Positions 6,340 through 59,190 of a stretch of 64,000 bases of DNA are shown here, one piece after another. Position numbers and translations under genes: made by a program. The notes under the pieces are model-generated. The model saw nothing but the letters and a program-made list of their open reading frames with translations, searched no databases and was not told the origin of the DNA. The DNA lies in assembly GCA_028694425.1 (NCBI GenBank), contig JAQVKX010000001.1:841-64840 (forward strand). Direction: 5' to 3'. Numbering within the stretch: position 1 is the first letter of the stretch; every line of letters begins with the position of its first letter. Source of the DNA: Candidatus Gastranaerophilales bacterium. Its GTDB lineage: Bacteria > Cyanobacteriota > Vampirovibrionia > Gastranaerophilales > Gastranaerophilaceae.

Positions 6340-6600
6340 AAGGCAAAAAGCAAAAAGTGAAGCGTGAAGCGTGAAGGGAAAAAGGGAATAGGGAACAGAA
6401 AAGAAGACAAGATGCGTAGATGCGTAGAGGCGTAGCCGAGTGACGAAGCAATCCAAGGAGCTAAAAGCAAAAAGTAAAATGTGAAATGTGAAAAGAAGTT
6501 GAACAGTCGAATAGTTGAAAAGTTTAATTAAGTGAGGCGTGAGGCGTGAAGCGAAAAGCTTGCCTTCCTGCCCTCTTGCCCTCTTGCCTTCTTTTCACAT
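6340..6600. repeat. SWR cluster (large; contains core GAAGACAAGATGCGTAGATGCGTAGAGGCGTAG at 6403-6435)
   Basis: AAAAGC, GTGAAGC, GGGAAnA, GCGTAG, GTGAAAT, GTTGAAnAG, GTGAGGC and CTTGCC(C/T)TC words, each iterated 2-4 times. Confidence 0.9.
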
Positions 6601-30693: not shown

Positions 30694-30852
30694 CATGTCA
30701 TTGCGAACAGAGACGAAACCTCAACGCGGCAATCCAAAAAAATAATTAAATTTATTAAATCTTTTTGGATTTACCTCTCACCCAAAGGTACATTTAGTAC
30801 CTTTGGGTTCGGCAGAGTGTCGCTCGTTACACTCGCTCCTCGCAATGACATG
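30694..30852. mobile_element. MITE-like non-autonomous element, 159 bp
   Basis: perfect 13-bp terminal inverted repeats CATGTCATTGCGA / TCGCAATGACATG; internal 12-bp-stem hairpin ACCCAAAGGTAC-ATTTA-GTACCTTTGGGT; no transposase in the window. Confidence 0.55.
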
Positions 30853-58030: not shown

Positions 58031-58414
58031 CTAACAATAAGCAAAAATGCAAATCAGCTTAGACCCGAAAAGCAGAATTCCGATGGCTATACTTATGAAG
58101 GTTGCTACCATAACAGCCCCTGCCGCTATGTCTTTTGCCATTCCGACAAGTTTTGAGTACCTGTTGTGAAAAATTGCATCCAACGTAAATTCTATCGCTG
58201 AATTAACCATTTCTGTCATTATTACAATCGCAATTGCAATCAACAACAGACAAAATTCAACCGTATTAAAATGCAGGACAATTCCACTTGAAATTGCAAC
58301 CAGAGCAGCTACAAAGTGGATTCTTATGTTTCTTTCACTCTTTAGTGCTAATCTTATCCCCTTAAAAGAATTTTTGAATGTTCCGGTAAACCCCGGTGCT
58401 TTATACTTCGACAC
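58031..58414 (-). CDS. dgkA: diacylglycerol/undecaprenol kinase family protein
   Basis: FKNSFKGIRLALKSERNIRIH...EMVNSAIE motifs; start placed at the GTG at 58414 with GGAGG 4 nt upstream. The ORF track extends to 58627 through repeat words. Confidence 0.75.
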   Translation of the reverse strand: MSKYKAPGFTGTFKNSFKGIRLALKSERNIRIHFVAALVAISSGIVLHFNTVEFCLLLIAIAIVIMTEMVNSAIEFTLDAIFHNRYSKLVGMAKDIAAGAVMVATFISIAIGILLFGSKLICIFAYC

Positions 58415-58505
58415 TTTTCCTCCGCTAATAAATTTTTTTAAAAGAGTTTTTACTCGGTTGTCTATAGTTGAACGGTTGAAAGGCTTAAAAACCGAATGAT
58501 TGTCA

Positions 58506-58645
58506 GAAGCGTGGAGGCGTAGATGCGTAGAGGCGTAGTTTTCATCCCGCTCTTCTATGCATCTTATCTTCTTGTCCTCTTGTCTTCTCTTTCTTTGCTT
58601 TTTGCTTTTTACCTTTTCACCCTTCATGCTTCACCCTTCACTTTC
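58506..58645. repeat. SWR cluster at the ybeY/dgkA junction
   Basis: GAAGCGTGGAGGCGTAGATGCGTAGAGGCGTAG ... CTATGCATCTTATCTTCTTGTCCTCTTGTCTTCTC ... TTTGCTTTTTGCTTTTTACCTTTTCACCCTTCA. Confidence 0.9.
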
Positions 58646-59190
58646 TGAAGAGCAACTTTTTGAGCACTCACAATAAAAGTATACTCTTCATCTGTTTTAT
58701 GGTCAAATCCAAGTAAATGTAAAATACCATGGGCGATTAAGAAATAAAGCTCTTCTTTGGTTGAATGGGTGAATGGGTGAATAGGTGAACGGTTATTTTG
58801 GATTGCATCTGTTTTCTCTCCCACGTTTTCTGTTCCCTTTTCAAAAACTTTGTCTAAAGAAATAATAATTTCACCTAAATTTATTTCACCGTCGAATACA
58901 AATTTATCTTCACTATCTGCAAAAATTGCAAATGTAATTATGTCAGCCGGATAATCCTTTTGACGATATTCTTTATTAATTTGATGTGTTTTTTCATTGT
59001 CACAGTATAAAATATCAAACGATATACATTTAAAATCAAAATTAAAAAGACATGATGAATTAAAGATATTTTTTTCCTTTAAATAAAAATGAAGTATCTT
59101 TTTTGCAATTTGTATTGCTTTTTTTTCATCAACTGCCAAGTCCTTATGTATATTTTCGGAAAATATATTAATTGTTGTCATTTTTTTCAC
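58624..59190 (-). CDS. ybeY: endoribonuclease YbeY with a repeat-derived internal insertion
   Basis: HGILHLLGFDH zinc motif and DIITFAIF/GEIIISLDKV upstream blocks. Confidence 0.9.
   Translation of the reverse strand: MKKMTTINIFSENIHKDLAVDEKKAIQIAKKILHFYLKEKNIFNSSCLFNFDFKCISFDILYCDNEKTHQINKEYRQKDYPADIITFAIFADSEDKFVFDGEINLGEIIISLDKVFEKGTENVGEKTDAIQNNRSPIHPFTHSTKEELYFLIAHGILHLLGFDHKTDEEYTFIVSAQKVALQKVKGEA
58761..58810. repeat. SWR words inside ybeY, in frame
   Basis: TTGAATGGGTGAATGGGTGAATAGGTGAACGG, translated on the minus strand as RSPIHPFTHST. Confidence 0.8.

Follow-up and report, generated by a model that had tools for sequence, protein, structure and literature searches.

An in-frame insert derived from a dispersed repeat in the ybeY gene of a Gastranaerophilaceae bacterium

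We report that the ybeY gene of a Candidatus Gastranaerophilales bacterium carries, in the linker ahead of its catalytic helix, a repeat-derived insert, which lies in frame in an intact, single-copy gene and shares a near-identical block with a second gene of the same genome. The reading that we favour, with a probability of about 0.8, is that a dispersed, non-autonomous repeat peculiar to this lineage has been copied into the YbeY linker by a recombination-type process and is tolerated there as a translated, disordered loop. YbeY is an essential RNA-processing enzyme (RNase), and for junk repeats that are found in frame in essential genes there is one textbook case, the RPEs of Rickettsia.

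Results and discussion

The ybeY gene and its product

The window, by which we mean the whole 64,000-nt stretch of contig JAQVKX010000001.1 that was analysed (assembly GCA_028694425.1), belongs to a MAG of 2.23 Mb with a GC content of 34%, which is split into 256 contigs and is 92.5% complete with 4.4% contamination (hereafter G000). The ybeY gene is located at positions 58624-59190 of the window on the minus strand and codes for a protein of 188 amino acids when read from a GTG start codon, or of 185 amino acids from the ATG at position 59181. The 188-aa ORF scores 91.3 bits for the Pfam family PF02130 (YbeY), whose cut-off is 25, and the insert breaks the alignment to the profile into two parts. 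In an alignment of orthologues, all invariant residues are present in the protein, namely N72, R76, D83, F87, F90, A91, D92, L105, H154, G155, H158, G161 and H164. The H-x-x-x-H-x-x-x-x-x-H motif is likewise retained, and the zinc-binding stretch H154-G-I-L-H158-L-L-G-F-D-H164 (58699-58731, minus strand), in which H154, G155, H158, G161 and H164 fall on invariant columns of this alignment, begins 10 residues past the end of the insert.

An AlphaFold model, built on an alignment of homologues, reached a pLDDT of 89.8 and a pTM of 0.86. Residues 119-138 in the numbering of the model form a coil with pLDDT values of 47-64, flanked by helices spanning residues 109-118 and 139-156, and the second of these helices contains the conserved positions of the zinc motif. 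The insert is probably translated as a low-complexity, disordered surface loop of roughly 27 residues. Foldseek matched the model to the structures 1OZ9, 7Y7O and 1XM5 with a probability of 1.00 and target TM scores of 0.74-0.88; the extra loop is absent from each of these three solved YbeY structures. The protein is thus an ordinary member of the YbeY family in its fold, its zinc-binding histidines and its gene neighbourhood (7TM-HD gene, ybeY, dgkA), and differs by 18 additional residues in the linker ahead of the catalytic helix. Since the catalytic and invariant residues are intact and the YbeY fold is predicted with confidence, the gene looks functional. The preliminary description of this DNA had named, as a case that would refute it, a pseudogene accompanied by an intact gene at another locus; a search of the 256-contig, 92.5% complete assembly turned up no further ybeY. 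The exact protein is present on only one contig of the public collection.

Anatomy of the insert

Based on alignments and direct reading of the sequence, the composite insert comprises 82 nt (58758-58839, minus strand) and runs from K118 to T144 plus one base. As about 28 nt of the native linker were replaced by these 82 nt, the net gain is 54 nt or 18 amino acids. The left arm (58809-58839, minus strand) is a degenerate GGRAACA-type array, AAGGGAACAGAAAACGTGGGAGAGAAAACAG, translated as KGTENVGEKT. It aligns with a cleaner (GGAAACA)x4 array of the second gene described below at 22 of 29 positions, and GGAAACA arrays are scattered across the G000 genome. The spacer (58790-58808, minus strand) consists of 19 nt, ATGCAATCCAAAATAACCG, which are translated as DAIQNN and have a single match in the window. 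In its core, GCAATCCAAAA, one recognises the 3' tail of a hairpin element that is dispersed in the genome and has the form GTCATTGCGAGGAG-stem-CGACGAAGCAATCCAA. The right arm (58758-58789, minus strand) is a (TTCACCYA)x4 array, for which Tandem Repeats Finder returned a period of 8, 4.0 copies and 91% matches; three of its four units differ from one another. Positions 58761-58792 hold four copies of an 8-base word within ybeY, reading NRSPIHPFTHST. The sequence TTGAATGGGTGAATGGGTGAATAGGTGAACGG at this location lies antisense to the gene, and translation of the coding strand gives N133 R S P I H P F T H S T144. The preliminary description had noticed that the repeat words translated as RSPIHPFTHST lie inside ybeY ahead of the HGILHLLGFDH helix, and both the period-8 array and the Pfam assignment of the ORF agree with this. 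It had also pointed to a resemblance between the flanking words and a cluster at 6385-6450 of the window. These words indeed recur in this cluster (6385-6458) as GGGAACAGAAAAG and GAAGCAATCCAAGG, a resemblance that is explained by the spacer being the tail of the hairpin element.

The insert showed no stable structure, its predicted RNA fold being no better than that of shuffled sequence (z = 0.28), and neither terminal inverted repeats nor inverted arms were found in it. Rfam gave no family match anywhere in the window. A hairpin- or MITE-type element was considered for the ybeY insert and rejected on the fold score, the lack of terminal inverted repeats and the lack of a target-site duplication. 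On the ybeY coding strand, stop codons are absent from all words of the insert in every phase, and the reading frame therefore stays open.

The same peptide signature had been noted in polA and in a GT39-like gene. Both instances are present: the polA ORF contains VHPFTPTPIQ, and a 535-aa membrane glycosyltransferase-like ORF contains NHSPIHLFTYSPIQLF. The suggestion that a recurrent frame is tolerated did not hold, as the 8-nt unit passes through all three frames, and it is the strand that recurs, not the frame. Whichever frame is read on the TTCACCCA strand, the peptide is FTHSPIHP in one of its cyclic permutations, whereas the complement, TGGGTGAA, has a TGA codon in frame once per three units, so that only the TTCACCCA sense can survive inside genes. 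As a side observation, the cleanest (TGGGTGAA)4 strands contain four G3 tracts and could in principle form a G-quadruplex, whereas most of the other words are free of G tracts.

The YbeY linker is filled repeatedly in related lineages

In the protein studied here, the linker between LDKV and EL is 31 amino acids long. It measures 13 amino acids in 26 of 29 YbeY orthologues from the same family or order (consensus LDKVxEEAxK...), and exactly 13 amino acids (xENAxEKGxxFEx) in 83 of the 120 nearest homologues from public genomes and metagenomes. The segment is hence not of normal length for its clade. The earlier claim that the linker is longer than in orthologues stands, and its size, guessed at about 15 residues, is corrected to 18. 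In 36 of the 120 homologues, all from independent assemblies, other repeat-derived inserts of 17-75 residues are located at the same linker; they are built of differing words or hairpin elements and have no conserved peptide in common. The insert of L053 reads (AGATGCGT)4 ... (CTACGCCT)4 and forms a palindromic cluster, that of L052 consists of (AGCAAAY)4, a complete hairpin and (CCTTCAGC)4, and that of L051 of (AGCAAAT)n followed by (TTCACCC)4. The hairpin of L052 takes the same relative position as the spacer in the ybeY insert described here. In YbeY proteins of some relatives, the hairpin element is seen translated as ...CHCEE...AIQ....

To trace the filled state, a YbeY tree was built from 153 columns with the loop columns taken out. 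On this tree the state changes 26 times, a count that could be inflated by recombination between strains, and at least seven of the changes are forced by well-supported branches. These data establish the YbeY loop as a recurrently filled site in the relatives of this bacterium. A single ancestral insertion in the YbeY clade was also considered and is unsupported, the filled alleles being scattered over the tree with the changes just given. Part of the scatter of filled and empty alleles could reflect homologous recombination between strains instead of new insertions. The most instructive pair is formed by the filled allele L054 and the empty allele L055, which are about 97% identical outside the loop and are separated by a net gap of 66 columns in the alignment. 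We read this gap as a hairpin-type insert of probably 78 nt or so in place of about 12 nt coding for N-S-V-E, and no target-site duplication was found at the filled/empty junction. In a second pair, P0012 and P0041, the insert is a palindromic array and the divergence is raised beside it, a pattern that would fit a conversion or recombination tract. Unrelated extra residues, for example SSTPPPPASLNREPCVAALSTKDE, are found at the same linker in the ybeY genes L013 (G020), L016 (G005) and L010 (G003), which are devoid of TTCACC arrays. As these come from distant, array-free genera, the YbeY loop tolerates changes in length beyond the repeat-bearing lineage.

A near-identical block in a second gene

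A 65-nt block of the insert region (58750-58814, minus strand) is 95% identical to positions 1873-1937 of contig C234 of the same genome and is read in the same frame there (blastn E = 2.8e-24, confirmed by pairwise alignment). The second host, at C234:1608-2507 on the plus strand, codes for a 299-aa protein with an HEFSH (HExxH) motif and no Pfam family. It surfaced as an unexpected further match when the genome was searched with YbeY, and its product contains ...KETGNSKQETEAIQNNRSPIHPFTHSPKEEL.... In all, the similarity between the two genes extends over 94 nt in the same frame, and the 65-nt block includes the unique spacer. When the genome was searched with this block by blastn, no intergenic locus was found to carry it, and beyond C234 only the arrays gave matches, of at most 35 nt. 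Fifteen orthologues of the C234 gene are all without the segment, and 62 of the 120 closest homologues of its product carry 26-80 repeat-derived residues at the homologous loop.

The direction of copying can be argued both ways. The shared right flank, AAAGAAGAGCTT (K-E-E-L), is closer to the YbeY consensus than to that of the C234 family, which hints that the block may have been copied from ybeY to the C234 gene. The cleaner left arm in the C234 gene, however, points in the opposite direction, towards possible copying from the C234 gene to ybeY.

Proteins of the C234 type (a further example is encoded at L031:1501-2391) have 275-300 amino acids and an HEFxH motif and are found in 36 of 41 relatives. 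Their loop following LExLF varies between 10 and 80 amino acids among 120 homologues, and it is a stronger hotspot for repeats than the YbeY loop. A third type of element, a CTGAAACAAGTTCAG hairpin module that is translated as (Q/R)YVILNLFQDLT(S/N)ERLCDPE(I/M)NSG(R/Q)H, was seen in the loops of some of these homologues, including P0123, P0149 and P0183.

The repeat family across the genome

The G000 genome contains about 950 arrays of 7- or 8-nt words, most of which are intergenic. Arrays with a period of 7 number 604, compared with 15 after block shuffling, and arrays with a period of 8 number 395 compared with 7, which corresponds to an excess of about 40- to 56-fold. No comparable excess was seen for periods 5, 6, 9 and 10, with 139, 126, 15 and 6 arrays versus 198, 51, 1 and 0 in shuffled sequence. 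The string (TTCACCNN)x3 occurs 116 times in G000, whereas its reversed control does not occur at all; among 120 other genomes of the family, it is found in only four, 4-16 times each, and the reversed control never. This distribution indicates a lineage-restricted burst. The arrays are imperfect, with a unit-to-unit identity of 0.86 and a modal copy number of four for both the 7- and the 8-nt words. ORFs of at least 100 amino acids, which make up 82% of the genome, hold 24% of the array bases, and the remaining 76% are located outside. Nevertheless, 98 arrays are located within long ORFs at a distance of 50 codons or more from the ends, and the frame of the host is open in every in-gene copy; arrays in genes are neither shorter nor less pure than those outside. 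Hosts confirmed by Pfam include LeuS (in the editing domain), UvrD, two Mur-ligase-type enzymes, TsaD, AroA (EPSP synthase) and PriA.

Arrays are also shared in composite form. We found 265 pairs of clusters with at least 60 nt in common at an identity of at least 88%, and a composite of roughly 169 nt is common to three loci, among them one on the contig that carries AroA. The peptides encoded by the clusters in AroA, in a FolC-like ORF and in a third ORF match each other. Judged from these sequence matches, composites generally appear to be copied as units throughout this genome.

The hairpin element whose tail is found in the spacer has the form (CAT)GTCATTGCGAGGAG, followed by a variable stem-loop with compensatory changes and by CGACG(A/C)(A/G)GCAATCCAA; examples in the window are located at 30700-30735 (C199:31540) and 6425-6458. 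A strict pattern recovers about 38 copies, often as head-to-head pairs, and they belong to no Rfam family. The genome has 62 GCAATCCAA sites, most of them at the end of a hairpin element. Word arrays such as AGAGGCGT resemble stutters of the inner sequence of the hairpin, GAGGCGTAGCC.

Y1_Tnp genes (IS200/IS605 or RAYT-type) were examined as candidate mobilisers. Three are present in G000 (C56:852-1196, C176:893-1234 and C93:13115-13483), and two of them score 93 and 75 bits, far above those of all but one of 120 other family genomes. No hairpin or array motif was found within 700 nt of the three genes. Y1_Tnp is present in 46 of 121 family genomes, in a distribution that does not track the arrays, and a survey of the Y1 transposase genes of G000 and of their distribution over the 121 family genomes yielded no mobilising enzyme that could be tied to the repeats.

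Mechanism and alternative explanations

In the reading that we favour, the repeat combines arrays of stuttered words of 7 and 8 nt with a fragment of a hairpin repeat. It has been pasted between the helix after the strand ISLDKV and the catalytic H-x-x-x-H helix, in place of about 28 nt of native linker. Cut-and-paste transposition is unlikely to account for the insert, because terminal inverted repeats and a target-site duplication are lacking, native bases were replaced and a near-identical block is found in a second gene. Arrival by recombination-type copying between dispersed copies, either as gene conversion or as microhomology-templated patch repair, would fit better. The insert probably has no role of its own and may persist because the loop tolerates changes in length and selection lets pass only insertions that are in frame and free of stop codons. 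In related lineages, the same YbeY loop would have received inserts many times over, whether by independent filling or by rewriting. In a variant that we consider unlikely, the stuttered-word patches would not be ordinary selfish copies; they would be traces left by a templated process of break repair or copy choice, peculiar to this lineage, which time and again rewrites the same permissive loops in essential proteins (YbeY, the HExxH protein, polA and others). If true, this would be a previously undescribed mutational mechanism, which would give related strains different disordered loops in their housekeeping proteins.

One rival is a loop with a function of its own. It could be a lineage-specific, disordered loop that modulates the partners, stability or regulation of YbeY, or a hypervariable patch under diversifying selection. 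Such a loop would agree with the differing inserts found at one site in 36 of 120 homologues and with the high lability of this state on the tree, with a like pattern in the C234 protein, seen in 62 of 120 homologues, and with the persistence at one site, in many lineages, of inserts that can still be recognised as arrays and have not decayed to random sequence. We nonetheless hold it to be unlikely. The inserts, of 17 to 75 amino acids, have unrelated words and no conserved peptide, the bare 13-aa linker suffices in 83 of 120 close homologues, the insert is predicted to be disordered at low confidence, and the same DNA is found in intergenic spacers and in unrelated enzymes. One might also speculate that the array is a contingency locus, in which slippage by one 8-nt unit shifts the frame and switches YbeY off and on. 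The number of bases per unit is not divisible by three and four tandem copies precede the catalytic motif, and SSRs are known phase-variation devices (PMC4692102). Yet an array of just four copies, three of them mutually different, is a poor match for such a switch, as is a genome-wide mode of four copies with an identity of 0.86 that is no different in genes, where arrays are no shorter and no less pure; in addition, the hosts are housekeeping genes and not surface or restriction genes. Phase variation therefore seems to us very unlikely.

It is highly improbable that the segment is an assembly artefact or that the gene is a pseudogene with an intact copy elsewhere. A MAG of 256 contigs with 92.5% completeness and 4.4% contamination is open to such doubts, and repeats invite mis-joins, but the ORF is open and of full length, all invariant residues are retained and the insert adds 54 nt net, keeping the frame; dozens of assemblies made independently from other samples have like inserts at this very codon, and a second ybeY was not found in the assembly. 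Removal of the segment before the mature protein is formed, as an intron-like or intein-like intervening sequence, is hardly credible. A conserved domain is interrupted at an exact position that is hit again in other lineages, as one would expect of such a sequence, but at 82 nt or about 27 amino acids the segment falls well short of the size of an intein or of a group I or II intron, the window has no Rfam match and the insert no stable fold (z = 0.28), and the host frame is open in every in-gene copy, which would be needless if the segment were spliced out.

Relation to known repeats and significance

A close parallel to the dispersed, translated repeat proposed here is found in the RPEs, which are discrete palindromic elements of 105-150 nt with a family consensus (Ogata et al., 2000, as reviewed in PMC10969869 and PMC3184786). 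Both are dispersed, non-autonomous repeats of one lineage, which are located in intergenic regions as well as in frame in many unrelated housekeeping genes and are translated as an extra peptide where the protein fold permits. In contrast to the RPEs, the ybeY insert is a non-palindromic mosaic of 7-/8-nt words with a hairpin fragment (z = 0.28) and has no whole-length consensus; only the arrays recur, over at most 35 nt, and the one full-length sibling found lies in a single other gene. There is also no relation in sequence or taxonomy between the two. In our reading, the ybeY repeat is RPE-like in effect but not in structure, and we take it for a translated selfish repeat that is probably tolerated.

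The words of STRR1-3 in heterocystous cyanobacteria, a sister lineage within the phylum of this organism, are ones that we take to differ from the word list of the genome studied here. STRRs are otherwise similar in forming few-copy 7-nt arrays with a mode of about four, which are over-represented and mostly intergenic (PMC4692102). These repeats are single-word arrays and are reported to be under-represented in coding regions (PMC4692102). The genome described here instead links many different words into composites, has arrays of period 7 alongside those of period 8 and shows composites copied into genes. MITEs such as ERIC, BOX and those of Anabaena can also give in-frame fusions (PMC10969869, PMC3184786) and are alike in being small, non-autonomous repeats that add peptide segments to host ORFs. 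They differ in that the repeat studied here lacks both terminal inverted repeats and a target-site duplication, and its filled and empty alleles differ by the replacement of native bases. In the literature that was searched, no work was found that connects either heptanucleotide repeats or in-frame repeats with Melainabacteria or Gastranaerophilales, and a prior description may exist.

An RPE-type outcome is hence seen in a free-living-type gut bacterium (Gastranaerophilaceae, a sister lineage of the cyanobacteria), by way of a structurally different repeat. The natural filled and empty alleles in public metagenomes make it directly testable how much unstructured peptide can be borne beside the active-site helix of a conserved enzyme, and the same alleles make testable how repeats without transposon ends are copied. 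Inserts of this kind also have a practical effect on genome annotation, as they split domain matches, lengthen proteins and give marker genes strain-specific 'variable regions'.

A second cluster at the ybeY/dgkA junction

Using Tandem Repeats Finder, ORF predictions and an alignment of DgkA, we delimited a second repeat cluster at the junction of ybeY and dgkA (58505-58641, minus strand). Here, a GTGAAGG-type array encodes the tail of YbeY (KVKGEA), and a variant unit, ATGAAGG, provides the overlapping stop codon of ybeY and start codon of dgkA (ATGA). The rest of the cluster is read as about 40 additional N-terminal residues of DgkA (MKGEKVKSKKQRKRRQEDKKIRCIEERDENYASTHLRLHASDNHSVFKPF...). 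The dgkA ORF (58031-58627, minus strand) codes for 198 amino acids, of which DAGK_prokar matches only residues 86-187. In relatives, the N-termini of DgkA are shorter and different, and many YbeY tails end in V-R/K-G-E.
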